A stretch of 62,025 nucleotides of DNA, filler included. It is 5 parts of 5 records of this genome, joined end to end, with 100 filler letters (N's around TTAATTAATTAA, not from the genome) between each part and the next. Parts side by side here need not be neighbours in the genome. Positions count along the whole stretch, not along the records: positions 31,228 to 49,071 come from SRR31156797_2070; 4 more parts are not named here. One strand, 5' to 3'. Below, piece after piece: positions 25,661 to 46,044 of the stretch. Numbering within the stretch: position 1 is the stretch's first letter; every line of letters starts with the position of its first letter. The position numbers and the translations under genes are program-made. Below the pieces are notes generated by a model. It was not told the origin of the DNA and ran no database searches. It saw nothing but the letters and a program-made list of their open reading frames with translations.

Positions 25661-25684
25661 ATAAAATTCTTATTGATAGCTATT

Positions 25685-28966: not shown

Positions 28967-29127
28967 TTAATTATCTTTTAAAAAGGTATTTTCTTACTTT
29001 CTAAATTCTATTTCAATCTTAAAATTTGTTCTATACTTTTTATTCACTAAAAGTAAAACACCAAAGGACTACCAAATAAATTTATAGAACAGGTTTTCAT
29101 GAAGCAGAACACATTTTTAGTTTGATT

Positions 29128-31125
29128 TTAGTTCTTTACACCGATCTCCCTGACCGGAATTTGTTTAAAACCAGGTAATTTTTTAAATACCTCAGAAGAT
29201 TCTTTAAGCCTAAAATCCTCATTCTTTTTATCGATAAAACCGGGATCATCCATCGTAGCAAAATTATTATCCGGAAGAACAAATAGATCTTTCTTATTTT
29301 CCCAGATCAACTGCTCTGTACTTACAAACACATTGTTTTCAAATACATTTCGTTTGGGTTGTGCAGGGTTCTCATCCCAATAATTGATTAACCTGGGATA
29401 GCGCTCACTATAAGGTGGTTGGTTATAATTTATTTCATACAACTGTCGATCAATAATCCCTCCTTCCTGAACCATATTTTTGGCCCAATCGTAGCTTAAA
29501 AATCGATCATCTATTTTAATGCCAATAGCATTATCGATAAAAATATTATTGATGTAAACATTATCGCTTCCTCCGCCAATTTGAGAAGCAAAAGAACCTG
29601 CTTTGTATAAGATATTGCCAATTAAGGTTAAGGCGCAGGCACCATCGTCGTGATAAATACCAGCCGACCTGAATCCTTCTCTTCCAATGTGATGGAAATA
29701 ATTGTAACGAAGGATATTTCCCCTTTCCGAAGGATTTCTTCCATAATAAAAAGCTCCTACATCATCGGTCGACAGGCAGACATCATGAATATTGTTATAC
29801 TCAATTAAATGCTCGTTTCCGTTTAGCAAAATAGCATTATGAGAAGCATTAAATATCTCATTATGAGAAATACGGTTACCAACCCCGGTTATTTTAACAC
29901 CGGGGCAATACGTTTTATAAATACGATTGTAACCGTAAATTCTACAATTACTTACAAAATTACCCGCAGCTTCTAATGTTTTACGATCGCCTCCAAACAA
30001 GCGTACTCCTCCAGCCCCTGTATGTTTAATGATGCAATTTACAACGCCGTTATTTTTACTTAATAAGGATTTTTCATCATTATTATCAATCTCAACGGCA
30101 TAGCAACCAACATTTTTTAAGGTACAATCAGATAAAAAACAGTTCTTTGATCCGTACATTTCAACAGCCACTGCCCTTGTACAGTCGAAAGTAATCCCTT
30201 TAATGGTAATATTTGATGAACCTTTTATTTGAACAAATGGGACTTTAAGCATTGAAACTTTAAGCGACTGAATATTGCCAGGACTATAAAAGTAAAGTAT
30301 TCCCTCCTTCCTGTCGATAAAATATTCTTTAATCATATCAAGTTCTGCAGCAATGTTACAGGCGTACCACCTTGTAACAACTTTATCTGAATTAAAACCA
30401 TAACGATTCGCTTTTCCGGTTTTAAAAGTTTTATTTTTCAAATCGATAGATGCCAGAGGCAACGCATCATCGGCCCATCCAGCCTTAAAATATCCATACA
30501 ACCAAATATCTTCAGTTCCTTTCCAGGTTTCAGGGTGCTTCATAATATACTTAAACTCCCCGCCAGTGTCACTGCTATCACCTTCAATTATAATAGAGCA
30601 ATCTTCTATTACTTCCCCCATTTTTACGTAAGAATCGTCGGGCCATCTCGACAAATGAAAAGGAATGTCGTTTACAAAAAGTTCCATCCAAACCGGGATT
30701 ATAGGACGCATGTACCCCACAGAGCGAAGCTTTCCGTAATCAGTAATCCCATTTTTCTTTAGTTGAACCATTGAAATTGCTTCACGGCTTTTTTCAGGAA
30801 ATAATTTTTCTTTATCCGTACCCGCCACTGGCATTACCAATTTTGGATCGATTGATAATCCTCCGGAAAAGCAAACCTTCTCGTTCTGATAAGGAGCAAT
30901 TGTAATATTGCTGTCTTTGGCTGTTAATTCAACCGTTTGCTCAAAAAAATACTCGCCTTCCCGAATTAGAATATTATAAGGGCTGTTTTCTCCACCTGCC
31001 CTTTGTTCCCGCACAAAATCAACAGCTCTCTGAATGGTTAGAAACGGGCTATCAATTGTTCCGCTTCCCTGATCGTTGCCCTGCTGTGATACAAAAACAT
31101 CTGCTTTGGTTGAACACGATATTAA
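29128..31125 (-). CDS. right-handed parallel beta-helix protein (pectin-lyase fold), 5' truncated
   Basis: The frame stays open beyond the track's start to the contig edge: LISCSTKADVFVSQQGNDQGSGTIDSPFLTIQRA. Beta-helix repeats (GVGNRISHNEI, HLIEYNNIHDV, DVGAFY, GIYHDDG). Confidence 0.85.
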   Translation of the reverse strand, partial: LISCSTKADVFVSQQGNDQGSGTIDSPFLTIQRAVDFVREQRAGGENSPYNILIREGEYFFEQTVELTAKDSNITIAPYQNEKVCFSGGLSIDPKLVMPVAGTDKEKLFPEKSREAISMVQLKKNGITDYGKLRSVGYMRPIIPVWMELFVNDIPFHLSRWPDDSYVKMGEVIEDCSIIIEGDSSDTGGEFKYIMKHPETWKGTEDIWLYGYFKAGWADDALPLASIDLKNKTFKTGKANRYGFNSDKVVTRWYACNIAAELDMIKEYFIDRKEGILYFYSPGNIQSLKVSMLKVPFVQIKGSSNITIKGITFDCTRAVAVEMYGSKNCFLSDCTLKNVGCYAVEIDNNDEKSLLSKNNGVVNCIIKHTGAGGVRLFGGDRKTLEAAGNFVSNCRIYGYNRIYKTYCPGVKITGVGNRISHNEIFNASHNAILLNGNEHLIEYNNIHDVCLSTDDVGAFYYGRNPSERGNILRYNYFHHIGREGFRSAGIYHDDGACALTLIGNILYKAGSFASQIGGGSDNVYINNIFIDNAIGIKIDDRFLSYDWAKNMVQEGGIIDRQLYEINYNQPPYSERYPRLINYWDENPAQPKRNVFENNVFVSTEQLIWENKKDLFVLPDNNFATMDDPGFIDKKNEDFRLKESSEVFKKLPGFKQIPVREIGVKN

Positions 31126-31127
31126 TA

Positions 31128-31227
31128 NNNNNNNNNNNNNNNNNNNNNNNNNNNNNNNNNNNNNNNNNNNNTTAATTAATTAANNNNNNNNNNNNNNNNN
31201 NNNNNNNNNNNNNNNNNNNNNNNNNNN
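31128..31227. other. artificial contig spacer
   Basis: N-run + TTAATTAATTAA + N-run. Confidence 0.98.
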
Positions 31228-31277
31228 AAAATTTGCAAAAGAGTGCAATTTTTGCCATCGCTTCGAAAAAGAAATTT

Positions 31278-31285
31278 TACATTTG
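31278..31285 (+). promoter_or_regulatory. Bacteroidota -7 promoter box for the HerA-NurA-MTase-Liv operon
   Basis: TACATTTG matches TAnnTTTG, 20 nt before ATG 31306. Confidence 0.55.
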
Positions 31286-31305
31286 ATATTTAAATATTTT
31301 TCATT

Positions 31306-33417
31306 ATGGGAATTGAACAAGGACTTAATTCACGTTTAGACAAAGACAGAAAGGTTGAAACCCAACAATGGTTTAAAAAACTGATTCAACCTGACGAATA
31401 TGTTGGCGACCTGTATTCAATTAATTACGAAACTGCAAGAGTTATTATTCATGACTTCTACCGTGAAAAAGTTGGAGGGATTCCCAGTTTAAGTTTTTTA
31501 ATTGCTTCGAGGGTTGACCCAAATTCAGATGATATTGATTACAAAGAGGAAGACTCTTCTTTTATTTTACTACGAGTTATGGATTCTGCCTCATTACCCC
31601 AAGATAAAGAAGCGGAAAGAATTAGAGTTGAAACTGCACAAAGAATAAGTGGCGAAACAGAAAAACATTGGGACGATTCCGGCACAATGGATTTAAGAAC
31701 AAAAAACTTACTTGGATTTGCTGGTGTTCAATGCCGTATTATTGGGACTTTTTACCTGGAAGAGAATACAGGTAACGGTGAAGCTCCGCTTAATTTGAAA
31801 TTTGGAAGCGATATTTCAAATTATTATCCAAATCGTGGATTAAAGGTTTTCAAACCAAACGGAGCAGCACTTGAATCAATAGTAAATTACTGTGACCCTG
31901 CAAATATCCAAATAAATAATGAAAACTATAACAATACCGAAAGAGTTAAGCTCGGATTTATACGGTATGCTTCAACAAACAGAAAACACCAAAATATTGA
32001 TGATGTACCTGTTTACATATATCCGGCAGATTTATTATCACAAAAATCTGCATTATTTGGGATGACAAGGACAGGTAAATCTAATACTACAAAGATTATC
32101 GCAAAATCAGTCTTTGAATTAAGAAAAACGGAAAAACCAGAAGATAAACCTTTGAGAATTGGGCAAATCATTTTTGACCCAAATGGAGAATATGCTAATG
32201 AAAATCCACAAGACGTTGATGGAAGCAATAACCCAAATGCTTTGAAAAATGTTTGGAAGGTTCTGCCTGATACAAATAAGGAAGATGAAGTGATTACATA
32301 TGGCATTACCCCCCATCCAAATGACCCCGACAGAAATTTAATGCTTCTGAATTTCTATACAAATGAAAATTTGCAAATGGGAAAGTCCATTATTGATGGA
32401 ATTTTGAGTGAAGACCCAGCAACATACATCAAAAATTTCCTTCAAGTAGATTTTGAAGAACCAGACCAAAATGACCGAAGCGCAGTTACAAGATACAATA
32501 GGCGCATTTTGGCTTATAGGGCAATCTTGAGCCGAGCCGGATTTACTCCCCCTTCCAATATTACACCAAACACAAATAGACTGTTTAACAGAGAACTTAT
32601 TCAAGCATTAGAAAATTACGAAGGTGATAACGAAGCAGAATATCAATCAGCAGCAAGAATCTTTTCCACTCAAAGACCTAATTGGGGACAGTTAGCAAAT
32701 GCCTTTGAATCATTGGAGAAATTCATGCGCGAAAGGAATTCGGGATATTCTGATTTTGAATCAAATTATGTTAGCAGACCCAATGGTTCAGGTGAGAGGT
32801 GGGCTGATGAAAACTTTAAAAAGATTCTTGGTTTGTTTCAATATCCGAATGGAATTAGAAAAATTGGTAAAGCAGCCGAACAACATAGTCCTGATACAAG
32901 CAGGGATTATGCAGATGATATATACGAAAACCTTACACAAGGGAAACTAGTCATCATTGACCAATCAAGCGGTGAGCCTGAATTGAATAAATCGTCTGCA
33001 GAAAGAATAATGTGGCACATTTTCCGGGCAAATCAAAACCTATTCAGAAGTGGAGAGACGCCAACGGAGATATTAGTTTATGTAGAAGAAGCTCATAATA
33101 TTTTACCTGCGGGAAGCGACTTAGATTTATCGGATGTTTGGGTACGCACGGCCAAAGAAGGCTCAAAGTATCGGATTGGGATGGTGTATGCAACGCAGGA
33201 AGTCAGTAGTATTCAAAGAAATATTTTAAAAAATACTGCAAACTGGTTTATCAGCCATTTGAATAACACCGATGAAACAAAGGAGTTATGCAAATATTAT
33301 GATTTCCAAGATTTCGAGCCATCAATCAGGAGGGCACAGGATAAAGGCTTTTTGAGAGTAAAAACCTTAAGTAATTTATTTGTAATCCCTGTTCAGGTTG
33401 ACAGGTTCAGCGTTTAA
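31306..33417 (+). CDS. HerA/FtsK-superfamily ATPase (DUF87), HerA-like
   Basis: N-terminal barrel-like region; Walker A GMTRTGKS; IFDPNGEY; Walker B YVEEAH; AKEGSKY..YATQ; QDKGF. Confidence 0.88.
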   Translation: MGIEQGLNSRLDKDRKVETQQWFKKLIQPDEYVGDLYSINYETARVIIHDFYREKVGGIPSLSFLIASRVDPNSDDIDYKEEDSSFILLRVMDSASLPQDKEAERIRVETAQRISGETEKHWDDSGTMDLRTKNLLGFAGVQCRIIGTFYLEENTGNGEAPLNLKFGSDISNYYPNRGLKVFKPNGAALESIVNYCDPANIQINNENYNNTERVKLGFIRYASTNRKHQNIDDVPVYIYPADLLSQKSALFGMTRTGKSNTTKIIAKSVFELRKTEKPEDKPLRIGQIIFDPNGEYANENPQDVDGSNNPNALKNVWKVLPDTNKEDEVITYGITPHPNDPDRNLMLLNFYTNENLQMGKSIIDGILSEDPATYIKNFLQVDFEEPDQNDRSAVTRYNRRILAYRAILSRAGFTPPSNITPNTNRLFNRELIQALENYEGDNEAEYQSAARIFSTQRPNWGQLANAFESLEKFMRERNSGYSDFESNYVSRPNGSGERWADENFKKILGLFQYPNGIRKIGKAAEQHSPDTSRDYADDIYENLTQGKLVIIDQSSGEPELNKSSAERIMWHIFRANQNLFRSGETPTEILVYVEEAHNILPAGSDLDLSDVWVRTAKEGSKYRIGMVYATQEVSSIQRNILKNTANWFISHLNNTDETKELCKYYDFQDFEPSIRRAQDKGFLRVKTLSNLFVIPVQVDRFSV

Positions 33418-33428
33418 AATCATTTTTT

Positions 33429-34796
33429 ATGGGATTTGAAGGAGAATTTGCAAGTTATGAACCATTAAGGCGTTTGCTGGATAGTGATAAAGTTAAAGCA
33501 CTTGAAAGTCGTCTTAGAATAAGGAAACAAGATGAATCAGATGAACAAGATTTTGAATCATCAATAACACATAAAAAAGACTTAAAAGAAAGTCCTATTA
33601 AGCCAGACCTAGTTCTTGCAATTGATGGAAGTAATATTGCAGCCAAAGCTGAAAATGGATTCCCAGGAGCTGAATTTGGCTATATCACAATAGCATCAGT
33701 TCTCATTGACTTAAAACTAATTAAAGAGCTTGAGAAAGTAGATTTTATAGAGCCTAAAAAATTCCGCGAAACGGAAAAAGCATCGACAATTGATAGCGTA
33801 TTCCCCGGTTGCAATGTAATTATCGACACTGAAAAAGATGCTAAGGCATCACTAAGGAGGGCATTGTTCGAGGAACTAAAAAGCAACACTGTTTTCTCAG
33901 AAGGAGAAACTTTACTTGAAACTTATGAGCATCTTTTAAGGATAAAGAGAGAACACTTTTCAGATAGCCGCCCACCAAGAAGTCCGATTGAGGGTTTTGA
34001 AGGAGATATGGTTTATGGATATGGAGAGTATAAATGCCCAAAAACTGGTGAACCACTATATTCAACTGACGCTTTACGACTCCATGAATTGATGAACCCA
34101 AGCGGAAGTAATGGTGAATTGTTCGGACAAATAATGGCTACCATTGAGAAATTATGGCTTGTTCACATTTTAAGGGCATTTGAATATAAAGGCTGGTTAC
34201 CTACCCTACGTAGGGTTGCTTTTATAATGGATGGTCCACTTGCCGTTTTTAGCACTTCATCATGGCTGACTAAAGCAATAAACTATGAAATTACGAGAAT
34301 TAATGAAATTCAAAAAAAGGTCAATGGACAGGATTTATTAATTATCGGAATTGAAAAATCCGGCACATTTTACAACCATTTCATTGACATTGACACAACT
34401 AAGGACGGGATAACAGATAAGTTCCCAAAACAATCTGCTTTACTTCTGAATGATAGCTATATTAAAAGAAATATCATCTTTTCGGAAAGCACAAAACCGT
34501 ATGGTCAGGATACTTATTTTGGTAGAAAATTTTTCTATAAAACTTCTACTGGACAGAAAATTGTACCTGTAGTTGCCTATTTCAATAAACATCAGCTAAA
34601 TATGGATACCGCAAAACCGGAACAGTTTTCCAGATTAGCAGATGTGATGCATCTGCTTGACAAGTTAGTTTCAAGTAGATATCCAAATTCTGTTTCTCCA
34701 CTTGTTTCTGCTCATGCTGAAGCAGCAATTCCATTAAATTTGGGGAAAAGAATTTTTGAAGATATTGCCAGAGAAATACGAGATAAATCTGAATGA
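33429..34796 (+). CDS. NurA-like nuclease
   Basis: LAIDGS, FIMDGPL, IGIEKSG and C-terminal PLVSAH..A match the NurA motif order; directly downstream of HerA. Confidence 0.8.
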   Translation: MGFEGEFASYEPLRRLLDSDKVKALESRLRIRKQDESDEQDFESSITHKKDLKESPIKPDLVLAIDGSNIAAKAENGFPGAEFGYITIASVLIDLKLIKELEKVDFIEPKKFRETEKASTIDSVFPGCNVIIDTEKDAKASLRRALFEELKSNTVFSEGETLLETYEHLLRIKREHFSDSRPPRSPIEGFEGDMVYGYGEYKCPKTGEPLYSTDALRLHELMNPSGSNGELFGQIMATIEKLWLVHILRAFEYKGWLPTLRRVAFIMDGPLAVFSTSSWLTKAINYEITRINEIQKKVNGQDLLIIGIEKSGTFYNHFIDIDTTKDGITDKFPKQSALLLNDSYIKRNIIFSESTKPYGQDTYFGRKFFYKTSTGQKIVPVVAYFNKHQLNMDTAKPEQFSRLADVMHLLDKLVSSRYPNSVSPLVSAHAEAAIPLNLGKRIFEDIAREIRDKSE

Positions 34797-35917
34797 TAGC
34801 GATAGAAAAAATATTAAAAGGTTTTTCAACAGCCGAATCCCGCTGGGCAAGGTTCGGCCCCTATTATGCTATGTTCCCTTTAGACTTTGCTTTTGAAATT
34901 GTAAACAAATATTCAAAGGAAGGAGACTATATCATCGACCCCTTTGCAGGAAGGTGCAGCAGTATTTATGCAGGAGGTGTGTTAGGTAGAAATAGTTTAG
35001 GGATTGAGATTAACCCTGTTGGATGGTTATTTGGTACTGTAAAATTACAACCTGCTGAAAAAAGCGAAGTAATTGACCGTTTGCTTGAGATTTATTTAAA
35101 AAGAGAAGATTACAGTGGTGTAATAAAAGCAATGCCCGAGTTTTATCACATTTGTTACAGTGATGAAGTACTAAAATTTTTATTGGCAATACGGGATTTA
35201 TTGGATTGGCAGAAAAGTAATGTTGATGCAACTTTAATGTCCATTGTACTGGTTTATCTTCATGGAAAACTTGGTGAGGGTTTTTCCAATCAAATGCGTA
35301 TGACCAAATCAATGGGGATGAATTATTCGGTTGAATGGTGGAAGAAAAATGGCTTTACAAAACCACCTCAACTTAATCCTTATGAATTTATGTTGAAAAA
35401 GATTGAATGGCGCTATGCAAAAGGGAAACCGGAAGTAACAGAAAGCGCTGTTGTTTTTGGAGATAGCTCCACTGAGTTAGAAAAAATTGCAGAACGGGCT
35501 ATTCAAAATGACATAAAGTTCTCATTACTTTTTACTTCACCGCCTTATTATTCTATAACAGATTATCATGCTGACCAATGGTTACGATTATGGTTATTGG
35601 GAGGTCCTGAAAACCCACAAACATTAAAGGACAAACACAAAGGCCGTTTTATAAACAAACAAGAATACTATGAATTGCTGGATAGTGTTTTCGGACATAG
35701 TGCTAAACTAATGAAAACCCATAGCACAGTTTACGTAAGAACAGACAAACGTGAATTTACCTTTAATTCGACTGTAGAAATACTCAAAAAATATTTTCCT
35801 AATCATTCAATGCAAATTATTGAGAAACCATTAAAAAGCGATACAAAAACGCAAACAAAATTATTTGGGGATAAATCAATGAAACCCGGTGAAGTAGATT
35901 TAATCTTAACGAATTAA
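34793..35917 (+). CDS. DNA amino-methyltransferase (probably N4-cytosine)
   Basis: PYYAMFP, SAM-binding DPFAG, GIEINP, catalytic TSPPY; ATGA overlap with the NurA stop. Confidence 0.85.
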   Translation: MIAIEKILKGFSTAESRWARFGPYYAMFPLDFAFEIVNKYSKEGDYIIDPFAGRCSSIYAGGVLGRNSLGIEINPVGWLFGTVKLQPAEKSEVIDRLLEIYLKREDYSGVIKAMPEFYHICYSDEVLKFLLAIRDLLDWQKSNVDATLMSIVLVYLHGKLGEGFSNQMRMTKSMGMNYSVEWWKKNGFTKPPQLNPYEFMLKKIEWRYAKGKPEVTESAVVFGDSSTELEKIAERAIQNDIKFSLLFTSPPYYSITDYHADQWLRLWLLGGPENPQTLKDKHKGRFINKQEYYELLDSVFGHSAKLMKTHSTVYVRTDKREFTFNSTVEILKKYFPNHSMQIIEKPLKSDTKTQTKLFGDKSMKPGEVDLILTN

Positions 35918-35921
35918 ACTT

Positions 35922-36668
35922 ATGCTTGAAATAATAAACATACACAAATCATTTGGAGAACAGATAGTTCTTCAAGGAATTGATATGTCTTTTGAGCAAG
36001 GAAAAATTCATACAATTGTTGGAGGTAATGGAAGCGGAAAAACAACGCTATTTAATTTAATCACGGGTTTTTTGCGCCCAGACCAAGGTGAAATAAAATT
36101 AGAAGGGAAAAGGATAGAAAAGTATTCACCAGTCAGCATCAATAAAAAAGGAATTACCCGCACATTTCAGGATTTAAGGATAATCACCGAGGTTTCAGTC
36201 AAAGAAAATATTCTTTTAGCATTTAAAAACAATCCGGGAGAAAAAATCCTGAATTCCATTTTACCATCAAGGTTATTCAAAGACCAATATCAGAGGACTT
36301 CAAGGCAAGCAGAACAAATAATTGAGAAAGTTTCTCTGAAACCTGTGATAAACAGTTTGGCTGGTGAAATATCGTATGGTCAACAAAAGCTCTTAACTAT
36401 TGGATGCTGCCTTGCCAATAATGCTGATATATTACTCCTTGATGAACCTGTAGCGGGTATTGACAAGAATAATTATCAAAAAATATTTGAATTACTGGAA
36501 AAACTCAGGGAAGAAGGAAAAACAATTATCCAGATAGAACACAATCATGGCTTTGTTGAGAGTCTTGGTGATGATATCTGGTTTCTTCATGCCGGTAAAT
36601 CTTATTATTTTAGCGATTATCAATCGTTTATCAATGATAAAATTGTAAAAGAAACATACCTGAATTGA
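35922..36668 (+). CDS. Liv-type ABC transporter ATP-binding subunit (LivG-like)
   Basis: GGNGSGKTTLFNLITG, RTFQ, ISYGQQK, LLDEPVAG, IEH. Confidence 0.9.
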   Translation: MLEIINIHKSFGEQIVLQGIDMSFEQGKIHTIVGGNGSGKTTLFNLITGFLRPDQGEIKLEGKRIEKYSPVSINKKGITRTFQDLRIITEVSVKENILLAFKNNPGEKILNSILPSRLFKDQYQRTSRQAEQIIEKVSLKPVINSLAGEISYGQQKLLTIGCCLANNADILLLDEPVAGIDKNNYQKIFELLEKLREEGKTIIQIEHNHGFVESLGDDIWFLHAGKSYYFSDYQSFINDKIVKETYLN

Positions 36669-37315
36669 TGTTAGAAGTCAAACACATATCATCCGGTTAT
36701 GGAAAGAAGCAAGTGCTTTTTGATGTTTCGCTTACTGTGGAAAAAGGGGATGTTGTTTTGCTTACTGGTGGGAATGGTTCAGGAAAATCAACTTTATTGA
36801 AAAGTATTTATAATCTTCTACCTTGCTGGAATGGCGAAATCATTTTTGAAGAAAAAAAACTAAATGGTTTAAAACCATCAGATTTGATTCAAATAGGAAT
36901 TGTTTACATTCCACAAAAAGACTTTTATTTTGAAAATCTTTCCGTTGATGAAAATTTAAAAATTTCAGGTAATGTACTCAATAAAGATATCATAAAACAA
37001 AGAATTGAAGAGGTTTATGAATTAACAGGATTGGGAAAATTCAAGAAACGTAAGCCATTCAATTTAAGTGGTGGCGAAAGAAAAATTCTTGCATTTGGCA
37101 TGGGATTAATGCACAAACCACAACTCCTTTTATTTGATGAACCGTTTGCTGGTGTTGACGCCAAAAACTCTGAGATACTTAACCGTCTATTCAAGGAAAC
37201 AGTTATTAAACCAGAAAATATGATAATTCTTGTTGAGCATAAAGATGATGCGAAACAATTATATAATCGGAAAATTAAAATGGAATTAGGAACCCTAAAA
37301 AATTCAATAATATGA
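36668..37315 (+). CDS. Liv-type ABC transporter ATP-binding subunit (LivF-like)
   Basis: SGYGKKQVL, GGNGSGKST, LSGGERK, FDEPFAG, VEH. ATG at 36668 (TTG at 36665). Confidence 0.9.
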   Translation: MLEVKHISSGYGKKQVLFDVSLTVEKGDVVLLTGGNGSGKSTLLKSIYNLLPCWNGEIIFEEKKLNGLKPSDLIQIGIVYIPQKDFYFENLSVDENLKISGNVLNKDIIKQRIEEVYELTGLGKFKKRKPFNLSGGERKILAFGMGLMHKPQLLLFDEPFAGVDAKNSEILNRLFKETVIKPENMIILVEHKDDAKQLYNRKIKMELGTLKNSII

Positions 37316-38406
37316 GAAAGTTTGTTGTAATCTTTATTTCATTGTTATTCTTTTTTGGTTGCGTTAACCAACAAAAGAAAAAAAACCAATTTAAAATTGG
37401 CGTAATATCACCCTTAACTGGTGAGGTAGCCAGTTGGGGACAAATTCAAAAAAATGCAACGGATTTAGCAGTTGGTAAAATCAATTCTTCTGGTGGTATT
37501 AATGGAAAAAAAGTAACAGTAATATATGAGGATAGTAAAGCCTCACCTAAAGAAGGAGTGGCAGCTTTCCGAAAGTTATATGAGTTGGATTCATGTGATA
37601 TAGTGATTGGTGTTCCAGCTAGCAATGTTACCTTGGCAATTGCTCCTGTGGCTAATAAGATGGAGAGAGTTTTATTAACTTCCGGTTCAACCGCAACAGA
37701 GGTAGGTAATGCTGGGCCTTATGTGTTTCGAATTATGCCATCTGATGAGGAACAATCCAAAGTTATGAGTGAATGGGCTCAAGAACTTGGTTACAAAAAA
37801 ATAGCTGTGATTTACGTACAAAATTCATGGGGAAAAGGATTAGCTGATAAGTTTATTGAAGACTTTAAAGAAAAGGTTGGTGAAATAGTTGCTAGTATCG
37901 GAACAAAACAGGAAGCTACAGACTTTAAGACGCAACTGTTGAAAATAAAAGGTACAAATGCCGAGGCGATATATGCTCCTTTGTATACCAGAAATGCAGG
38001 ATTAATGATACGACAAGCAAGAGAAATTGGCATTGACTTACAAATTTTGGGCGCTGATGTTTATAACACACCTGACTTGATTGAAGCAGGAGGCAAAGCG
38101 GTAAATGGAGTTTTATATACTCAGTTCAACCAAGGAGAAGGTAAATTATATGAAAGTTTTGCAGAAGAGTATGAAAAGGCATTTGGTAATGCACCGGAAA
38201 CATATGCAGGTTATTGCTATGATGCAGTGATGATTGCTGCAGAAGCTTTAAAAAAAGACAAAATGAGTACACGAGAAGCTCTATTGAATATAGTTAATTA
38301 TAAGGGAATTACCGGGATATCAAATTTTGATGGAAAAACGAATGCAACTGGTAAAACCTTTGAAAAGTGGACAGTAGAAAAAGGCAAACATGTAAAATAT
38401 GAATAG
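37312..38406 (+). CDS. LivJ/K-type substrate-binding lipoprotein
   Basis: Lipobox FFGC; KIGVISPLTG, GGINGKKV..ED, YVFRIMPSD, DFKTQL, YDAV. Confidence 0.9.
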   Translation: MRKFVVIFISLLFFFGCVNQQKKKNQFKIGVISPLTGEVASWGQIQKNATDLAVGKINSSGGINGKKVTVIYEDSKASPKEGVAAFRKLYELDSCDIVIGVPASNVTLAIAPVANKMERVLLTSGSTATEVGNAGPYVFRIMPSDEEQSKVMSEWAQELGYKKIAVIYVQNSWGKGLADKFIEDFKEKVGEIVASIGTKQEATDFKTQLLKIKGTNAEAIYAPLYTRNAGLMIRQAREIGIDLQILGADVYNTPDLIEAGGKAVNGVLYTQFNQGEGKLYESFAEEYEKAFGNAPETYAGYCYDAVMIAAEALKKDKMSTREALLNIVNYKGITGISNFDGKTNATGKTFEKWTVEKGKHVKYE

Positions 38407-39682
38407 GAATTATAAAGCCATAATATCATTAATTCTCAGTTTTTTGGCAGTGTTTTGGTACTTTAATGTTGGTGCAGAACCTACTATAATAGATTTTGAA
38501 AAAATCGAAATCAAAATTTCATTAGTAATTGCTATTTTGTCTTTTTTGATTGCTTTACACTTTTTCTCTATTAAAGTAGTTGGATTTCGGGACTTTGAAG
38601 TATTTGAAAAAATTAGATATTTGATTACACTCAACTTTTACAATAAGAAAAACAAATATAAATCTAGGGTTTATACTCAAAGGGCTGTATGTCCTGAAAT
38701 TGAATTCAAATTCAAAGAAAAAAGAAAAATAGATAATAACACCATTTTTTTATTTAGAAGTAATGAGGAAATTCTAAAGAATGATACTTATAGCTTCATA
38801 GATTTAGAGAAAAGAGATTATCAAAAATATACAAAATTGTTAAAACGTAAAAGCAGGTATAAAGTAATTACATATAAAGATATACATATTTGGACACTCA
38901 GTTTTTATGATGACTTACTATATTATATTAACGATTTTAAGAAGTTTAAACATGAACCCTGTTTGTTAAATCGTTTATTCGTTTTAGACGACAATATATC
39001 TAATACCGATTTTACGAATTTTGTCAAGTTATTAAGAGATAATACAAAATTAGATTTAAAGCAAATATTAAATAATATATTAAAAAAGGATAAAAATGGA
39101 AGAAAGGCTTTAGATTTCAACGGTTTAGTCAACAGAGTTATTGAACCATCTAAAGTAAAACAGGAATATAAGATTAAATTACTCTTTTTATATTTTGCAC
39201 TATTTGTTCAAAATCGCTTAGGAATAAATTGTTATGTAATTTCAAAAGAAAAATTTGAAAAACAGACTGCTATAAGTTCAATGAATGATTTTTGGGAGTT
39301 TTCGGGCCTTGGAGTATTTGATGACCACATGACAGCTCTTGTTTATAAAGGACCTTCGAGGATTTATAATGAAAATACAGAAAAAATCAAAAACGATGAA
39401 TTAATCATAAAATATAAATTTCAGTTTAAAAACAATCAGGACATAAATGATTTATTTGACGATAATAGTTTTGATGAAAAAAACATTAAAGCACACAGTG
39501 GTCTAAATTCTGAAAACCAAGACTTACTTATAAAAATGAGTAAAGATGAAGCTTTTCTTAGAATAGTTGAGTTTTATGCTGAATTAATAAACTATCTATC
39601 ATTAAACAAATTGATTAGAAAATTTAAGTTTAAGAAAAAGAAGAATTTGAAAACTTTAATAGAAAATATTAATCATGGTTGA
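38399..39682 (+). CDS. hypothetical protein with two N-terminal TM segments
   Basis: 427-aa ORF overlapping both neighbours; two hydrophobic helices then a Lys/Asn-rich soluble region; visibly very AT-rich. Confidence 0.75.
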   Translation: MNRNYKAIISLILSFLAVFWYFNVGAEPTIIDFEKIEIKISLVIAILSFLIALHFFSIKVVGFRDFEVFEKIRYLITLNFYNKKNKYKSRVYTQRAVCPEIEFKFKEKRKIDNNTIFLFRSNEEILKNDTYSFIDLEKRDYQKYTKLLKRKSRYKVITYKDIHIWTLSFYDDLLYYINDFKKFKHEPCLLNRLFVLDDNISNTDFTNFVKLLRDNTKLDLKQILNNILKKDKNGRKALDFNGLVNRVIEPSKVKQEYKIKLLFLYFALFVQNRLGINCYVISKEKFEKQTAISSMNDFWEFSGLGVFDDHMTALVYKGPSRIYNENTEKIKNDELIIKYKFQFKNNQDINDLFDDNSFDEKNIKAHSGLNSENQDLLIKMSKDEAFLRIVEFYAELINYLSLNKLIRKFKFKKKKNLKTLIENINHG

Positions 39683-41705
39683 TATATATTTCCCACCCCA
39701 CTTTTCATATTATCAACCATACATTGCTTTGCCTTCACTCAAAGCTTTTTTGGAGGGCAATAATATTCACTGCAATATTCATGATTTAAACATTCGTTCA
39801 TTTCACTACTTAATTAATCCCAATTATATAAAAAAATGCTTCAAAAAAATAGAAGAACAAATTTCAGCTTTTGAATCAAAATCAGAATTAGATGAAAAGG
39901 AATTTAGTTATTATGAACAATTAATTCAAGGCCGATTAGCCTATCCGTTAGTGGCTGAATTTATTGAAAAGGCAATCACTTTTTTTCAGGATGAAGAGCA
40001 AATTTTAGATTTTAAAAAATACCAATTATTTGAACGGGTTGTTGACAATGCGTTTAAAATTATTTCAACAGCGTTTTACCCTACATTAATTTCACTCTCT
40101 GATTTTTCTATGGAGTATAGCTTTGAATCATCCATTGAAATTGAAGCAGCTATTGCAGATGAGGAAGAAAATCCATTTATCGGTTATTTTCAAAACTATT
40201 TAAAAGAAAATGAGCTTAAGCAAGATGATAAATTATTGGGAATATCAATTACTGCCACAAGTCAAATGATACCTGCGTTTACGTTGGCAAAAATATTACG
40301 TAAAAAATATCCCGAAAAAAAGATTGTATTGGGCGGAGTAATTTCAAATCATCTTGCAGTAAAATTTACAAGAAGCCAATCTCTTAATAAATACTTTGAT
40401 TTTTTAATAAGCGGTGAGGGTGAAACAGCTCTTTTAGGATTAACAAAACACTTAGAAAATGGATTTGAGATTGAACAAATTCCAAATTTGTACTATAAAT
40501 CAAACGGGCAATGGCGTTCAAACAATAAATTAATCGTTGAACAGGTTGAAAAAATCCCTACTCCTAATTACGATGGTTTTCCTCTTGATGCATACTTAGC
40601 TCCAAAACCGATTCTATCCATTGAACCTGGCAGAGGCTGTTATTATCGAAAATGTACTTTTTGCAACCAACATTCAATTCATAAAGGACATTTTAACATA
40701 AAGAAGGTTGATTCAATATTCAATCAAATTAGAGTTTTAAAGAAAAAATACAATAGTAATTATTTTAACCTATCCAATGAAGGTATTCCAATTCTTCATT
40801 TAAAAAAACTTGCTCTCAAATTAATTGAGGAAAAAACAGATATTTACTGGTATGCTGGGGCACGGTTATCAGATAAACTGGATGTAGAGACATGCCAGAC
40901 ACTATACAAATCAGGATGCCGTAAACTTTTATTTGGTTTAGAATCCGGTAATCAAAGAATACTGGATTTAATGAAAAAAGATGTTAATCTTGATAAAGTA
41001 CCGTACATATTTAATAATTGTAAAAAAGCAGGTATTGATATTGTTACTTATTTAATGATAGGCTTCCCGACAGAAAAAGAACATGAAATAAATGACACCA
41101 CACAATTCATAATTAAAAACTTGCCCAATATTCTTCCTGAGGGTTTCGTTTTCTATATCAGTGTGTTTCAAGCCATGATTGATTCTCCAATATTGGAATT
41201 ATTGCCTGAATACGGTTACGAGCTAATAGAAAAGGATGGCTATGACTTAATTTATATTTATACCCATAAAAAAACAAAAGATGATTCCAAGTATACAAGA
41301 GTTTTTTATGAGGATAAAATCAAGGAAATGAATTCCTTAATTTATGAAAAGTTACCACCTCAGTCTTTACCTCTGAATATTTCCCATTATATGGCTTATA
41401 AGGCGCATAAACACAGTGTTAAAGCAGATGATAAAAATAATGTTGATTTAGAAAGTACTAGAATAAAAACAAGCCAATGGATATCATTTGGAGATGCAAA
41501 ATTTATTTGCTCAAATGGCGATAAATTAGTTTATTCATTATTGACTAATAAAAGCTATCTTATAAACGCTGACGGCAAGGAAATTCTTGATTATCTTCAA
41601 CGTCCATGCGATATTAAAGAAATAAAAAAAGAATTTAATGAGGTAGTGTCAATTGATGATTATCTTAAATTTGTAATTAATAACAAAATATGTATTCAAG
41701 TATGA
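39675..41705 (+). CDS. cobalamin-binding radical SAM enzyme with C-terminal RRE/PqqD-like domain
   Basis: PYIALPSL, GISIT..Q..IVLGG, GEGE (B12-binding domain); RGCYYRKCTFC cluster motif; GLESG, YLMIGFPTE; tail LVYSLLTNKSYLINADGKEILDYL..IKEI..L.FVINNKI. Confidence 0.88.
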   Translation: MVDIYFPPHFSYYQPYIALPSLKAFLEGNNIHCNIHDLNIRSFHYLINPNYIKKCFKKIEEQISAFESKSELDEKEFSYYEQLIQGRLAYPLVAEFIEKAITFFQDEEQILDFKKYQLFERVVDNAFKIISTAFYPTLISLSDFSMEYSFESSIEIEAAIADEEENPFIGYFQNYLKENELKQDDKLLGISITATSQMIPAFTLAKILRKKYPEKKIVLGGVISNHLAVKFTRSQSLNKYFDFLISGEGETALLGLTKHLENGFEIEQIPNLYYKSNGQWRSNNKLIVEQVEKIPTPNYDGFPLDAYLAPKPILSIEPGRGCYYRKCTFCNQHSIHKGHFNIKKVDSIFNQIRVLKKKYNSNYFNLSNEGIPILHLKKLALKLIEEKTDIYWYAGARLSDKLDVETCQTLYKSGCRKLLFGLESGNQRILDLMKKDVNLDKVPYIFNNCKKAGIDIVTYLMIGFPTEKEHEINDTTQFIIKNLPNILPEGFVFYISVFQAMIDSPILELLPEYGYELIEKDGYDLIYIYTHKKTKDDSKYTRVFYEDKIKEMNSLIYEKLPPQSLPLNISHYMAYKAHKHSVKADDKNNVDLESTRIKTSQWISFGDAKFICSNGDKLVYSLLTNKSYLINADGKEILDYLQRPCDIKEIKKEFNEVVSIDDYLKFVINNKICIQV

Positions 41706-41821
41706 AAAACAAAGATGTAAAAAAACCAATCATTAGGGAATATGAATTCAAAAACATTCATAGTGCTCTTTATGATATTAAAAAGAAACACCCGGTTGTG
41801 ACTAAAGGTAGCAGAGGGTAA
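41702..41821 (+). CDS. 39-aa small ORF, candidate RiPP precursor peptide
   Basis: MKNKDVKKPIIREYEFKNIHSALYDIKKKHPVVTKGSRG*. ATGA overlap with the radical SAM stop; ends 5 nt before the LivH start. Below the ORF-track size cutoff. Confidence 0.7.
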   Translation: MKNKDVKKPIIREYEFKNIHSALYDIKKKHPVVTKGSRG

Positions 41822-41826
41822 TTATT

Positions 41827-42705
41827 ATGTGGGTTCAATTATTCATAAATATTACTCTTTCGTTTTCGATTTACCTTTTAATATCATACTCCTTTTCACT
41901 GATATATAGCACAGAAGGTTTTTTTAATATTTCGCAAGCTGCAGTAATTACTTTAGGAGCCTATTTAACTTTCTTTTTAAAGGTTCAAATTGGTTTATCT
42001 TTAGCAACATCAATTATCATAGCTATAATTTTATCATCGGTAATTGGGCTTTTTATTGAGGTTGGTGTTTATAAATTCTTTCGAAAAAAGAAAAGTCATT
42101 CTTTCGTCTTATTGCTTTCTTCATTAGGGATATACATAATTTTACAGAATCTTATCGCGCTATTTTGGGGCGACAGGAATCTATCAATAAGGGATAACTC
42201 TTCGGAAATTGGCAACAAAATAGCTGGCGGATATATTACAGATATTCAGTTAATAACCATTGTAATTAGTATCATAGTCATTTCCTTAGCCGTTATCTTC
42301 ATGAACAAATCAAAGCTCGGTAAAAAAATAAGAGCAATTTCATCGAATAACCAATTAGCCATTAATTTTGGTATTAACGTGAATAAAGTTATCGCAATAA
42401 CAGTATTAATTAGTTCATCTATTGCATCATTAGTTGGTATTTTAGTTGCACTTGATACTGATATGGTTCCTACAATAGGTTTCGACCTACTCGTATTTGG
42501 TATTGTAGCAATGATAATTGGCGGTATTGGAAGCACTTGGGGTTTAATTATTGGTTCATTTGTTCTCGCCAGTGCTCAACATTTTGGAGCATATTTTATA
42601 GATAGCAATTGGATGGATGCAATTACATACATTATTTTAATCCTGTTTTTGATATGGAAACCATTGGGTTTTAGTGGCAAACAACTAAAAAAAGTTGAAA
42701 TATAA
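41827..42705 (+). CDS. Liv-type ABC transporter permease (LivH-like)
   Basis: SLIY..GFFNISQA, SKLGKKIRAISSN..A..GINV, IIGGIGS..G, KPLGFSG. Confidence 0.9.
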   Translation: MWVQLFINITLSFSIYLLISYSFSLIYSTEGFFNISQAAVITLGAYLTFFLKVQIGLSLATSIIIAIILSSVIGLFIEVGVYKFFRKKKSHSFVLLLSSLGIYIILQNLIALFWGDRNLSIRDNSSEIGNKIAGGYITDIQLITIVISIIVISLAVIFMNKSKLGKKIRAISSNNQLAINFGINVNKVIAITVLISSSIASLVGILVALDTDMVPTIGFDLLVFGIVAMIIGGIGSTWGLIIGSFVLASAQHFGAYFIDSNWMDAITYIILILFLIWKPLGFSGKQLKKVEI

Positions 42706-43586
42706 TGGAATACATCCTCCACATAGTCATAATGATTTTACTCTACGTAATGCTTTCCCAAAGCCTTACAATTACGTCTGGCTATTCCGGCTTGATTTCA
42801 CTGGCTCATGCAGGATTTTATGGAATTGGTGCGTACGCTTCAGCAATTCTATCTGTAAATTTCAGTATGCCATTTCTTTTAACGCTTCCAGTTGCAATGG
42901 TTGTTAGTGGCGTTATCGCTGTATTTGTATCCACTATAGCTTTACGTACGGTAGATGATTATTTCATAATAATCACTTTAGGAGTACAGGTAGTTGCATT
43001 CTCTATTATGAACAACTGGATGGATTTAACTAATGGCCCTCTGGGTATTCCGGGTATTCCGGCAATTACAATTTTGGATTTTGAGTTTTCTAGCAAAATT
43101 TCATTTTTGCTACTTACCTTATTTTTAACAGCTATTGTGTTTTTAATTTTAAGAAACATTACCAAATCACCTTTTGGCAGGATTTTAATTGCATTGAGCG
43201 AGGACGAAATTTTCACCAAAAGTCTTGGAAAAAAAGTCTACCAGGCAAAAATTATCAGTTTTACAATTGGAGGCATGTTTGCTGCAATTCCGGGTGTTCT
43301 TTATGCGCATTACATCAGCTACATTGACCCTACAAGTTTCACCATAGATGAATCCATCTTTATTTTATCAATAGTAATTATAGGAGGCATGAGATATTTA
43401 TGGGGGTCAGCTATTGCAGCAGCAGTACTGGTTATTTTACCGGAAGCATTAAGATTTTTAGGTATGCCAAGTAACATTGCTGCAAACATAAGACAGATAA
43501 TTTATGGATTGGCACTCGTAATAATGATGTTTAAATTCAGCAAAGGCTTTATATCAAAAAACTATGTTGGACAGGAAAACAAATAG
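42705..43586 (+). CDS. Liv-type ABC transporter permease (LivM-like)
   Basis: GYSGLISLAHAGFYGIGAY, DYFIIITLG, TNGPLGI, SPFGR..A..EDE, YIDPTSF, LPEALR. Confidence 0.9.
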   Translation: MEYILHIVIMILLYVMLSQSLTITSGYSGLISLAHAGFYGIGAYASAILSVNFSMPFLLTLPVAMVVSGVIAVFVSTIALRTVDDYFIIITLGVQVVAFSIMNNWMDLTNGPLGIPGIPAITILDFEFSSKISFLLLTLFLTAIVFLILRNITKSPFGRILIALSEDEIFTKSLGKKVYQAKIISFTIGGMFAAIPGVLYAHYISYIDPTSFTIDESIFILSIVIIGGMRYLWGSAIAAAVLVILPEALRFLGMPSNIAANIRQIIYGLALVIMMFKFSKGFISKNYVGQENK

Positions 43587-43782
43587 GCCAGCCCTAATTG
43601 CATACACATTGGCAAAACCCACAAAGCCAACGCTCAAACCAAATTTTGCCAAAGAGTATGCAATTGCCACCCCTTTCTTGCCGACCCTAAAAACTAATTT
43701 TTTCAGCAACAGTAGTGCTTCGATTGAACGATTTTTTAATTGTAATAAGCTGATAATGAAACGATAATGAATAAAGCCCAGC

Positions 43783-43912
43783 ATACAACATCGTGTATAG
43801 TGCATTTGGCGGATAGTGCTAATTTCAAGGGCGTTACAACTAATAAAATTTGTAGCGATTTGACAGGTTTGTACTCCGAAATGCTAAACGTTTCATATAC
43901 TCGCCGTTGTGC
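43783..43912 (+). mobile_element. attC-like integron cassette recombination site 1 (130 bp)
   Basis: ATACAAC ... GTTGTGC ends; imperfect terminal inverted repeat ACAACatCGtGTATA / TATACtCGccGTTGT; inner stem CGTTACAA/TTGTAGCG. Confidence 0.7.
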
Positions 43913-44037
43913 TTAATTTAACAGTGAGACTCAAACTGTGCTTATAGAAAAGATTGGAAAGTGTAAGCGAGAAAAAATAGAAAATACCAGAAAATGGATT
44001 TCAACTAAAATCATAATTTCAAAGAGGGACTTATCAA

Positions 44038-44439
44038 ATGGAATACTTCGGTTCTTGTTTATGTAAAGGAATTAAATTTAAAGTTATAGGTGACTTTGAG
44101 CGTTTTTATTTATGCCATTGCAGATATTGTAGGAAAGACACAGGGTCTGCTCATGCGGCAAATTTGTTTTCCACTACAGCTAAACTTGAATGGATAAAAA
44201 CGGAAACTGAAATTAAAATATTTCAACCACATAAGAGTAATCATGTGAAAGCCTTTTGTACAAATTGTGGTTCAGCTTTGCCCAATTTACAAATGGACGG
44301 TAAACTTTTAGTAGTTCCAGCAGGATGTTTAGATACAAAATTAGAAAAACGACCTAATGCACATATTTTTATCTCAAACAAAGCAAGTTGGGATGATTCG
44401 TTGGAAGAAATAAATAAATTTGGACGCTTCCCAGAATAA
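44038..44439 (+). CDS. GFA/CENP-V family zinc-binding protein (probable gene cassette)
   Basis: GSCLC, CHCRYCRK, FCTNCGS, HIF..KASW; lies between two attC-like sites. Confidence 0.92.
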   Translation: MEYFGSCLCKGIKFKVIGDFERFYLCHCRYCRKDTGSAHAANLFSTTAKLEWIKTETEIKIFQPHKSNHVKAFCTNCGSALPNLQMDGKLLVVPAGCLDTKLEKRPNAHIFISNKASWDDSLEEINKFGRFPE

Positions 44440-44538
44440 AATATAGATAAAGAGATTTGCTCCAGTTTTTTGATATAAATAGATATCGAGAAACAACTTA
44501 ATGGAGATTAATATAAAAGAAAAATTTTAAAAAACTAA

Positions 44539-44668
44539 GCACAGAAATGTTTATAGCAAGCAGGCCTAATAGTAGTAAACTCAAGGGTTATGGCCTGCTT
44601 CAATTTTCTTGTGACTTGACAGGAAACCGCCATGCAGTCGACTACTATTCTTATACTCACCGTTAACC
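44539..44668 (+). mobile_element. attC-like site 2 (130 bp, degenerate left core)
   Basis: GCACAGA ... GTTAACC; shares TCAAGGG, TTGACAGG and TATACTCRCCGTT with site 1; perfect 9-bp stems AATAGTAGT/ACTACTATT and AAGCAGGCC/GGCCTGCTT. Confidence 0.65.
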
Positions 44669-44694
44669 CAAAACAAAAATAAAACCCAAAAAGC

Positions 44695-45558
44695 ATGATT
44701 AAAATTAACCTTACAACCCTTTTTTTAGTAATTGCTATGTGTCTTGCTGGCCAGGGCACAGACTTTAAACCCATTTCGATCAAAGAAGGAGTGGAGCTGG
44801 CTAAATCGCAGGATAAAAACCTTTTTTTGTACTTTGGTACCACGCATTGTCCTTATTCACAAACTATGTTTACTTATTTATTAAACGATGAAACAATTGG
44901 TGATTTTTTTAATAAAAATTATATCAATATTGGGTATGGCGATTCAACCACCCAGGACAGGGTGAAATGGTACTATAGTGATACACGCAAGCAGTTTCAT
45001 AGATTAGAGACTGAATTGGAAGCCGTGTTGTGTAACTATTTTGTTTGGCCTAACTATTTTTTCATCAACAAACAAGGAAAAATTTCTTTCATGAATACTG
45101 GTATGCGTTCACCTGAGCAAATTCTGGAATATGCCAAAATGGTTAATAATGGTGAAAGTAAATTGCCTTTGTGGTTCAGAATTAAATTTAATAACCGGGT
45201 GTATCCTAAAAATAAGAAGACATTTGGAATGCTCACCCATTGCCTCAATGCCTATGTGAAAATGGATGTACCCGAGAATATTGATTATAATAATGATAGT
45301 ACTTTCCATTTGACAGATTTTACATTTGAGGAGCATAATCTTACGAATGCTCAAAAGGATATTGAGGCTTCACTACAATACAACGAGTATTACTTTAATT
45401 GCTTTTTGGCTTCGGTAATCTATTACAAGTCTGAACAATTGGAAAAAGCCCAACGATATGCCCAAAAAGGGTTGAATGATTTTCCGAAACACTGGTTTGA
45501 TTCAAGAAAGCTACCCGATCAATTGATGCGTGAGATATTGGAATATGAAACGGATTAA
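44695..45558 (+). CDS. exported thioredoxin-fold protein (CxxS) with helical C-terminus
   Basis: Signal peptide; ELAKSQDKNLFLYFGTTHCPYS; WPNYFFINKQG. Confidence 0.7.
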   Translation: MIKINLTTLFLVIAMCLAGQGTDFKPISIKEGVELAKSQDKNLFLYFGTTHCPYSQTMFTYLLNDETIGDFFNKNYINIGYGDSTTQDRVKWYYSDTRKQFHRLETELEAVLCNYFVWPNYFFINKQGKISFMNTGMRSPEQILEYAKMVNNGESKLPLWFRIKFNNRVYPKNKKTFGMLTHCLNAYVKMDVPENIDYNNDSTFHLTDFTFEEHNLTNAQKDIEASLQYNEYYFNCFLASVIYYKSEQLEKAQRYAQKGLNDFPKHWFDSRKLPDQLMREILEYETD

Positions 45559-46033: not shown

Positions 46034-46044
46034 CCTTTATTTTG

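Follow-up and report, generated by a model that had tools for sequence, protein, structure and literature searches.

The window analysed here is a stretch of DNA of 62,025 nucleotides, and we are concerned with a block of eleven genes on its plus strand (31306-43586). In this block, a trio of genes for a HerA-type ATPase, a NurA-domain nuclease and a DNA methyltransferase (MTase) is followed by a Liv-type ABC transporter with a radical S-adenosylmethionine (rSAM) enzyme and a small peptide gene nested within it. The window consists of five contigs (1-19512, 19613-31127, 31228-49071, 49172-55152 and 55253-62025), separated by four spacers of the form N44-TTAATTAATTAA-N44 (19513-19612, 31128-31227, 49072-49171 and 55153-55252). 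These are pieces of a draft assembly or metagenome-assembled genome (MAG) that were joined artificially and thus provide no genomic context for one another; GC content is approximately 0.48 in 1-19512, compared to 0.26-0.37 in the other pieces. The HerA start codon (ATG, 31306) lies 78 nt from the start of the third contig (31228-49071), which therefore gives almost no view of the region upstream of HerA.

An earlier inspection of the same letters, here called the sequence-only reading, had described eleven same-strand open reading frames (ORFs) with overlaps or gaps of at most 11 nt, and both the ORF list and direct reading bear this out. The genes follow each other in the order HerA, NurA, SPPY MTase, LivG, LivF, lipoprotein substrate-binding protein (SBP), 427-aa protein, B12 rSAM enzyme, 39-aa peptide, LivH and LivM (Table 1), and the gaps between them are, in this order, 11, -4, 4, -4, -4, -8, -8, -4, 5 and -1 nt. 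The ATGA overlaps (34793, 37312 and 41702) and the TAATG junction (42703-42707) are found where they had been reported, and the gene identifications are in good agreement with Pfam. GC content at third codon positions is alike over all eleven genes (0.22-0.32), and the spacing suggests that they are co-transcribed. General scans for transcription signals remain at chance level, with 52 sigma-70 promoter-like sites versus 59 expected and 7 terminator-like sites versus 7.7 expected. The pattern TTTG-N17-23-TAnnTTTG, which we take to be the Bacteroidota promoter consensus, matches once on the plus strand of 31228-44100 (shuffle mean 0.26). It is no more than a match to a consensus, and it corresponds to the single promoter box that had been noticed in front of the block. 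With Rfam (E up to 0.1), no riboswitch or known RNA was found on 31228-49071, where only eukaryotic families appear at chance level, and a tRNA scan of the window found none.

Table 1. Features of the eleven-gene block and its surroundings, with positions counted along the window.
Feature	Position	Strand	Remarks
Hairpin element, right half with GCCAxCGC box	31228-31261	+	cut by contig start; aligned with the L093, L005 and L003 copies upstream of HerA and with 43588-43682
Bacteroidota-type promoter-like match (TTTG-N-TACATTTG)	31251-31285	+	sole match in block, 21 nt before HerA ATG
HerA-type ATPase, 703 aa	31306-33417	+	Pfam DUF87; Walker A GMTRTGKS at residue 252
NurA-domain nuclease, 455 aa	33429-34796	+	Pfam NurA; adjoins HerA
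SPPY DNA methyltransferase, 374 aa	34793-35917	+	Pfam N6_N4_Mtase; PADLOC MTase_II, E 6e-18
LivG/UrtD-like ABC ATPase	35922-36668	+	Pfam ABC_tran; NCBIfam LivG 171.8 bits vs 362
LivF/UrtE-like ABC ATPase	36665-37315	+	Pfam ABC_tran; start TTG 36665 or ATG 36668
HAAT-family substrate-binding lipoprotein (SBP)	37312-38406	+	Peripla_BP_6, 213 bits; lipobox FFGC
427-aa protein, two or three N-terminal hydrophobic helices	38399-39682	+	no family assigned
Class B (cobalamin-type) radical SAM enzyme, 676 aa	39675-41705	+	Radical_SAM; C-terminal RRE-like domain, ~590-676
39-aa small ORF, candidate precursor peptide	41702-41821	+	leader PIIREYEF, core KHPVVTKGSRG
LivH-type permease	41827-42705	+	BPD_transp_2
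LivM-type permease	42705-43586	+	BPD_transp_2; 43-45% identical in L008 and L009
Hairpin element, full copy	43588-43682	+	inverted repeat I11; 15 nt after LivM stop
SecDF-P1-head gene	46045-46914	-	beside inverted repeat 45970-46038

The first gene of the trio exceeds the Pfam cut-off for DUF87 (49.3 bits vs 23.2), which places its product among the HerA/FtsK-type ATPases. Its homologues count in the thousands, and the best 120 listed are 76-99% identical and approximately 700 aa in length. Source names of the homologues include several Bacteroidota lineages, Chlorobaculum and Aegiribacteria. The best sequence match in the PDB is TdpA (8wet, E = 4.9e-15), confined to residues 544-661 of the C-terminal ATPase part. 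Scores stay far below those of the archaeal HerA equivalogs of double-strand break repair (NF040819/NF040937; 35.1 bits vs 970 and 31.1 vs 800) and of the anti-phage HerA equivalogs (NF042943/NF042944; 31.3 bits vs 800 and 25.9 vs 850). The NurA protein matches positions 2-254 of the 254 positions of the Pfam NurA profile with 103.9 bits (cut-off 21). In the MTase (N6_N4_Mtase, 47.1 bits vs cut-off 26.7), motif I (DPFAGRCS, near residue 50) precedes motif IV (TSPPYY, near residue 250), so that the protein carries both the SAM-binding motif I and the (S/D/N)PPY motif IV of amino-methyltransferases of restriction-modification systems. PADLOC returns weak HerA matches, generic MTase_II matches and none for NurA, which agrees with the earlier statement that no named system has this gene set. 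Neither Mre11 nor Rad50 is found on the HerA contig.

For a view of the trio in other genomes, nine loci are available, six from a scan of species genomes and three from 401 sampled genomes of the phylum Bacteroidota. The six are labelled Pedobacter, Aegiribacteria, Winogradskyella, 'Alteromonas' MAG, Cyclobacteriaceae and Bacteroidetes MAG. HerA, NurA and MTase occur in constant order in all six (61-77% identity) as well as in all nine (61-81%); NurA adjoins HerA in every one of the nine, and the MTase is 63-80% identical throughout. None of the eight downstream proteins of the block has a match in the six genome-scan loci, and homologues of the SBP, LivH, LivM, the rSAM enzyme and the 427-aa protein are missing from the flanks of all nine. 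The sequence-only reading had proposed one composite defence or signalling system and had named the synteny of trio and liv genes as a check; with the trio beside liv genes in 0 of 9 loci, the proposal fails this check. In addition, an rSAM orthologue is found anywhere in none of five trio-bearing genomes, where the best match is 28% identical. When all ORFs of at least 80 aa from the six loci are compared with each other, only the three cassette proteins are common to them and not a single flanking protein.

The distribution of the trio is patchy. Close HerA orthologues (73-79% identity) occur in just 4 of the 401 sampled genomes; three more genomes have distant ones (39-43%), and there HerA and NurA occur without the methylase of the trio. 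In two loci, L003 (10001-14644) and L004 (10001-14632), the trios are 98-99% identical while the flanks are unrelated. L003 comes from a Winogradskyella MAG, and L004 is labelled Alteromonas, although its contig has a gene for a SusC-like TonB receptor; the label may be a binning error. Whether or not it is right, the cassette has moved recently. The patchy occurrence of HerA, the wide range of lineages and these near-identical copies together argue for a mobile trio. Defence genes are found next to it; the neighbours include, in L002, a Gabija-like pair of AAA_15/OLD-TOPRIM and UvrD genes directly upstream and a second DUF87 protein nearby, in L001 an upstream UvrD-PD-(D/E)XK protein, and in L006 a Bro-N protein. 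The last locus, from the Bacteroidetes MAG, has NurA broken into two ORFs of 309 and 138 aa (12109-13476), which may represent an inactivated nuclease. No relatives of HerA were found in viral contigs, and on plasmids only distant ones (31-36% identity) were found. On the Nostoc cf. commune plasmid pANSO36C (5617-10425 of locus L099), an HTH regulator precedes HerA (35% identity) and NurA, and the next gene encodes a 352-aa protein without annotation; its N-terminus is AbiTii-like by eye, and it is not a methylase. HerA-NurA pairs may thus have different third genes across subfamilies.

The remaining eight genes (35922-43586), which we call module 2, contain a complete HAAT importer set of two ATPases, two BPD_transp_2 permeases and a Peripla_BP_6 SBP, all above the Pfam cut-offs. 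None of the five reaches the score of its NCBIfam Liv equivalog (LivG, see Table 1; LivF 116.9 bits vs 441, SBP 131.2 vs 477, LivH 97 vs 379, LivM 160 vs 366). The nearest solved relatives of the SBP are binding proteins of the Leu/Ile/Val type (E = 1e-36). Liv systems had been called atypical of Bacteroidota, and this stands only in a weak form: permeases of the family PF02653, which also includes sugar importers, exceed the cut-off in 77 of 201 genomes sampled from the phylum. The 427-aa protein has no match in Pfam, NCBIfam or PADLOC, and a word-indexed homologue search came back empty. Two weak HMMER matches (E = 9e-7 and 2.6e-5) were obtained in 1.84 billion representatives, and Atlas matches lead only to unnamed clusters with scores of 0.88 or lower. 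Its AF2 model (pLDDT 40) is unusable.

The rSAM enzyme is supported by the Radical_SAM profile (63.5 bits vs cut-off 29.5), and its cysteine motif C322-x4-C327-x2-C330 is invariant in ten out of ten family members. The B12-binding domain stays below cut-off in the window protein (19.6 bits vs 32.1) and is seen in all ten members at E up to 0.1. With Foldseek, the model resembles OxsB, the protein methylase MgmA, TokK, AprD4, TsrM and CysS (E between 1e-12 and 1e-10 for OxsB, TokK, TsrM and MgmA). The AF2 model has a pLDDT of 74.5, and its C-terminal part (~590-676) folds into four short strands followed by three helices with pLDDT 80-93. Strands plus three helices are the topology of PqqD-like RiPP recognition element (RRE) domains, RiPP standing for ribosomally synthesized and post-translationally modified peptide. 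Scores for named RiPP families are below their cut-offs (rSAM_ocin_1, TIGR03975, 112.7 bits vs 281.85; ApyD 114.8 vs 750).

Orthologues of the enzyme are rare. The closest homologue is 66% identical, nine proteins of ~700 aa follow at 38-43%, and 585-aa anammox enzymes at ~34%. None of the 401 sampled genomes of the phylum contains an orthologue, the sole match at E <= 1e-50 being 25% identical, and the closest rSAM protein in viral contigs is only 29% identical. An rSAM profile gathered 80 metagenome loci, four of which (L007-L010) are orthologous at 38-42% identity, the first three of them at 40-42%. HerA, NurA and MTase have no match in any of the 80. The small ORF is present in all four orthologous loci and LivH in three. 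Genes occur in the order rSAM, small ORF, LivH in L007 and rSAM, small ORF, LivH, LivM in L009. L008 is the best covered, with an SBP (55% identical), a 704-aa multi-pass membrane/TPR protein, a 74-aa helical ORF, rSAM, small ORF, LivH, a 180-aa ORF, LivM, LivG and LivF. The 180-aa ORF between LivH and LivM (13440-13982) is aspartyl-protease-like and could be a leader peptidase, which the window lacks. In L010, a membrane/TPR protein precedes rSAM and small ORF, and ParE and PIN toxin-antitoxin genes follow.

The small ORF lies directly 3' of the rSAM gene in five out of five loci (window and L007-L010). Its product has a basic N-terminus, then a leader-like motif (PIIREYEF, PKIVEYRF, PEIDELKI or PDIDEPRI) and a C-terminal core KHPxxxTGxR(G); KHPxxxTGxR is found in four of the five, and H30 and P31 are invariant in all. 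The complex of rSAM enzyme, peptide, 4Fe-4S cluster and SAM was modelled in three runs, in which our own alignments were not used. It scores 0.69 (runs 0.70, 0.69 and 0.69), compared to 0.01 for the best control; this is above a mark that 51 of 78 solved complexes and 2 of 108 mismatched pairs attain. Residues 6-18 of the peptide are placed on two segments of the C-terminal rSAM domain, 626-637 and 654-667. The runs share at least 46% of the contacts, and the pLDDT of the partner is at least 46, so that the partner's own fold is uncertain.

A conserved hairpin element was found at both ends of the block (Table 1). Two GCCAACGC boxes of the GCCAxC type flank a stem of ~20 bp (CATACACATTGGCAAG / CTTGCCAAAGAGTATG), in which some positions are unpaired and whose loop of 26 nt is conserved. 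At other trio loci the hairpin lies 5-25 nt after the MTase stop (L003, L093 and L094; right arm alone in L005), and the right half with its box also occurs upstream of HerA in L093, L005, L003 and the window. Within 1.49 Mb of fetched DNA, paired arms are confined to those trio loci and the window. Coordinates elsewhere are 14640-14725 in L003, 7412-7500 in L093 and 10015-10105 in L122, the latter two on the minus strand. G075, G163 and G005 each contain a single exact match to the pattern, as does G003, where it lies at another locus and follows an SMC_N-like gene beside GMT-wHTH, DUF5131 and Cas4/PD-(D/E)XK-RNaseH genes. RNAalifold predicts 20 pairs from five copies, 9 of them with compensatory changes. 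The element, whose stem is thus backed by covariation, marks the 3' end of trio cassettes and of a further cassette in G003. It may be a structured RNA, or a signal for termination or for recombination by which Bacteroidota and their relatives exchange cassettes. An integron attC site was considered and rejected, as the hairpin does not fit by eye the R-box consensus. Apparent joints between ~31250 and ~43664-43673 are likewise not regarded as empty sites; their short sides measure 21-35 nt, and we read them as cross-matches between hairpin copies. In the window, the hairpin follows LivM and not the MTase. Consequently, the eight Liv/rSAM genes lie between the MTase stop and the usual end of the cassette.

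The joining of both halves is no assembly chimera. A single Logan contig from the probable source run covers 31228-44094 with zero differences, and in the independent study X2 a contig of 1976 nt (~92% identity) extends from 35363, inside the MTase, to 37290 at the end of LivF. A second X2 contig (42577-43694) holds LivM and the hairpin element behind it. Because the first X2 contig spans the joint between MTase and LivG, the fusion is real and specific to this lineage. Pieces of both halves are found in X3 at ~85-95% identity. The fusion is present in a clade of close relatives of roughly 85-94% identity.

Implementing all these observations, we consider it probable that the block represents two independent, separately conserved modules that have become one transcription unit in this lineage, and not one system. 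This follows from the three counts reported above: module 2 is found at 0 of 9 trio loci, the trio at 0 of 80 rSAM loci, and an rSAM orthologue in 0 of 5 trio genomes. Module 1 (31306-35917) would be a horizontally mobile cassette of three genes, in which a hexameric HerA translocase and the NurA nuclease form an ATP-driven machine that degrades unmarked DNA, while the SPPY amino-methyltransferase marks the DNA of the host. In other words, the trio would act as a restriction-modification-like defence with HerA-NurA in place of a restriction endonuclease. Module 2 would be a RiPP-like cluster of rare occurrence, set within an ABC importer of the HAAT (Liv) type. Here, the RRE-like C-terminal domain of the rSAM enzyme is proposed to hold the 39-aa peptide by its leader PIIREYEF, and the enzyme most likely methylates the KHPxxxTGxRG core; the lipoprotein SBP together with LivHM and LivGF may take up the product or an amino-acid-like ligand related to it. 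Placed after the MTase stop but before the hairpin that closes the trio, the Liv/rSAM block would be read from the promoter of the trio cassette. Two histories would fit, namely insertion of the block before the hairpin, or loss of a hairpin between two neighbouring cassettes. Either would yield a single promoter and tight coupling in the absence of a functional link, and the joining thus looks like a fusion or capture event and not like evidence of functional dependence. Somewhat doubtful, and put forward as a possibility only, is the further suggestion that module 2 alone represents a new RiPP class with a HAAT-imported product and a tendency towards defence or toxin-antitoxin neighbourhoods.

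A number of observations weigh against the two-module reading or parts of it, and several of them speak for a true composite at the same time, in which HerA-NurA-MTase restriction and the rSAM peptide/Liv genes act together and all eleven genes form one mobile cassette bounded by hairpins. The peptide module could then provide an infection signal, an antiviral metabolite or small molecule, or a regulator of the nuclease, and the whole would be a new kind of defence system. The MTase and LivG are separated by merely 4 nt, as expected of one unit, and the block contains one promoter-like box only, while its terminator-like sites do not exceed chance. Copies of the same hairpin element bracket all eleven genes, and the fusion has been kept in relatives of ~85-94% identity from other studies, with the arrangement retained in X2 and probably in X3. 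The neighbourhoods of module 2 would also allow a defence-related role: an AbiTii-family gene (4935-5582) lies upstream of the SBP in L008, and in L010 two tandem pairs of 82-aa and 86-aa ORFs and a PIN-domain gene (3542-5966) lie downstream of rSAM and small ORF, the single 86-aa ORF scanned being of the ParE family. There is also a weak rSAM match to the PADLOC candidate PDC-M51A (E = 1.5e-7). The synteny sample, moreover, is small (nine trio and four rSAM loci) and excludes the closest HerA relatives (81-99% identity). Nevertheless, we regard the composite as unlikely, because module 2 and trio do not meet at any of the nine trio loci or of the 80 rSAM-profile loci, the orthologous four included, nor does an rSAM orthologue occur in the five trio genomes. 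Either half is complete and conserved alone, and a setting in defence islands is common and no sign of cooperation.

Further reservations concern the roles assigned to the single modules. The trio is a putative anti-phage system, and its NurA has no match at all in PADLOC, NCBIfam or among PDB sequences. An alternative is that the trio is a module for DNA repair or end resection with an orphan methylase. According to PMC12977600 and PMC4663267, HerA-NurA is the end-resection machine of archaea, and Deinococcus has a HerA-NurA pair; it also suits this alternative that no defence library names the trio. Even so, there is little to recommend it: close orthologues occur in just 4 of 401 sampled genomes, Mre11/Rad50 are not nearby, and every locus has flanks of its own, even where the copies are near-identical. 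Furthermore, the trio adjoins Gabija-like genes in L002, and its linkage to the methylase is obligatory (9 of 9 loci). As to module 2, the SBP resembles amino-acid binders and not peptide binders, a poor fit to the import of a whole modified peptide. Alternatively, module 2 might serve the uptake and modification of a small molecule, with Liv importing an amino-acid-like compound that the B12 rSAM enzyme modifies by C- or P-methylation or rearrangement, the small ORF being an accessory or regulatory peptide or non-functional. The SBP, nearest to Leu/Ile/Val-type binders, agrees with this. So does the PhpK P-methyltransferase family as the best NCBIfam match of the rSAM enzyme (129.9 bits), although every NCBIfam match is far below its cut-off. 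OxsB, TokK, AprD4 and CysS among the Foldseek matches are small-molecule enzymes, and Pfam PqqD appears in just one of the ten family members (E = 0.0075). We nonetheless judge small-molecule modification to be improbable, if less so than the composite or a repair module, as the small ORF stands behind rSAM in five out of five loci with conserved leader and core motifs, the enzyme ends in a confident domain of beta-strands and three helices, and the conserved leader is modelled onto this very domain far above the controls. The model itself has to be read with care. Solved complexes of RREs with leaders exist, and the pass may reflect likeness to them, so that it indicates likeness and is no proof of binding; in addition, the modelling job carried small molecules, whereas the calibration was done without them.

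Among known systems, TdpABC, in which restriction-modification is based on phosphorothioates, comes closest to the trio as a three-gene cassette, in which one modification enzyme marks self DNA while a HerA-type hexameric ATPase and a nuclease attack unmarked DNA, roles that presumably fall to TdpA and TdpB. In contrast, the modification gene of the trio encodes an SPPY DNA methyltransferase instead of a TdpC-type enzyme for phosphorothioation, and its nuclease is a NurA-domain protein; the likeness of HerA to TdpA is limited to the C-terminal ATPase part, and the other trio genes are not Tdp-like. The trio would thus be a methylation-based counterpart of TdpABC, in which tdpC alone makes the modification (PMC12914056). 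With the archaeal HerA-NurA machinery, the trio shares a HerA (DUF87) gene directly upstream of a full-length NurA gene, but it differs in the missing Mre11/Rad50, the obligatory methylase linkage and the patchy, mobile spread. SIR2-HerA and DUF4297-HerA are similar in pairing HerA with an effector in a defence-island setting, and PADLOC and NCBIfam report weak HerA_antiphage matches over the C-terminal ATPase. Here, however, NurA takes the place of SIR2 or DUF4297 as effector, an MTase is present, and the HerA score is 31 bits compared to 800.

Module 2 resembles cobalamin rSAM RiPP pathways (TIGR03975 rSAM_ocin_1, ApyD and proteusin-type C-methylases) in the short precursor gene beside a class B rSAM gene, and known RRE-leader complexes in the leader that is modelled onto a C-terminal domain of beta-strands and three helices. 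Unlike those pathways, it sits in an SBP-dependent Liv importer, and in the window it comes with neither an exporter nor a dedicated leader protease. LivJ/K-HMGF likewise comprises two ATPases, two permeases and a Peripla_BP_6 SBP close to Leu/Ile/Val binders, but the order in module 2 is GF-K-[unknown-rSAM-peptide]-HM, with three foreign genes inside. In the literature searched, in which most subscription journals are missing, we found no description of a HerA-NurA-methylase system or of a Liv-type importer joined to a RiPP rSAM cluster. The trio is widespread, strongly conserved as judged from the best 120 listed HerA homologues and mobile, and neither PADLOC nor NCBIfam has a name for it. 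Module 2 is unusual in combining a RiPP-like maturase with an SBP-dependent importer in place of an exporter, and it may hint at a ligand that derives from a peptide and is imported by cells.

Some features of the window lie outside the block. Behind the hairpin, a segment of approximately 90 nt (43800-43890) has a very high depth in metagenome contigs, with 2298 in one X1 contig, compared to 157 for the operon, and is found in nine X2 contigs; it is a repeat common to many organisms or loci and has no Rfam match. Just beyond the start of the SecDF-P1-head gene, an inverted repeat (45970-46038) has arms of 34 nt that are 82% complementary and separated by 1 nt, for which Rfam gives only chance-level matches to a plant miRNA family. 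A cluster for the utilisation of rhamnose polysaccharides, without relation to the operon, lies on the minus strand of the second contig (19613-31127); it comprises two GH106 alpha-L-rhamnosidase genes together with genes for an MFS transporter, a GntR-type regulator and a beta-helix protein.

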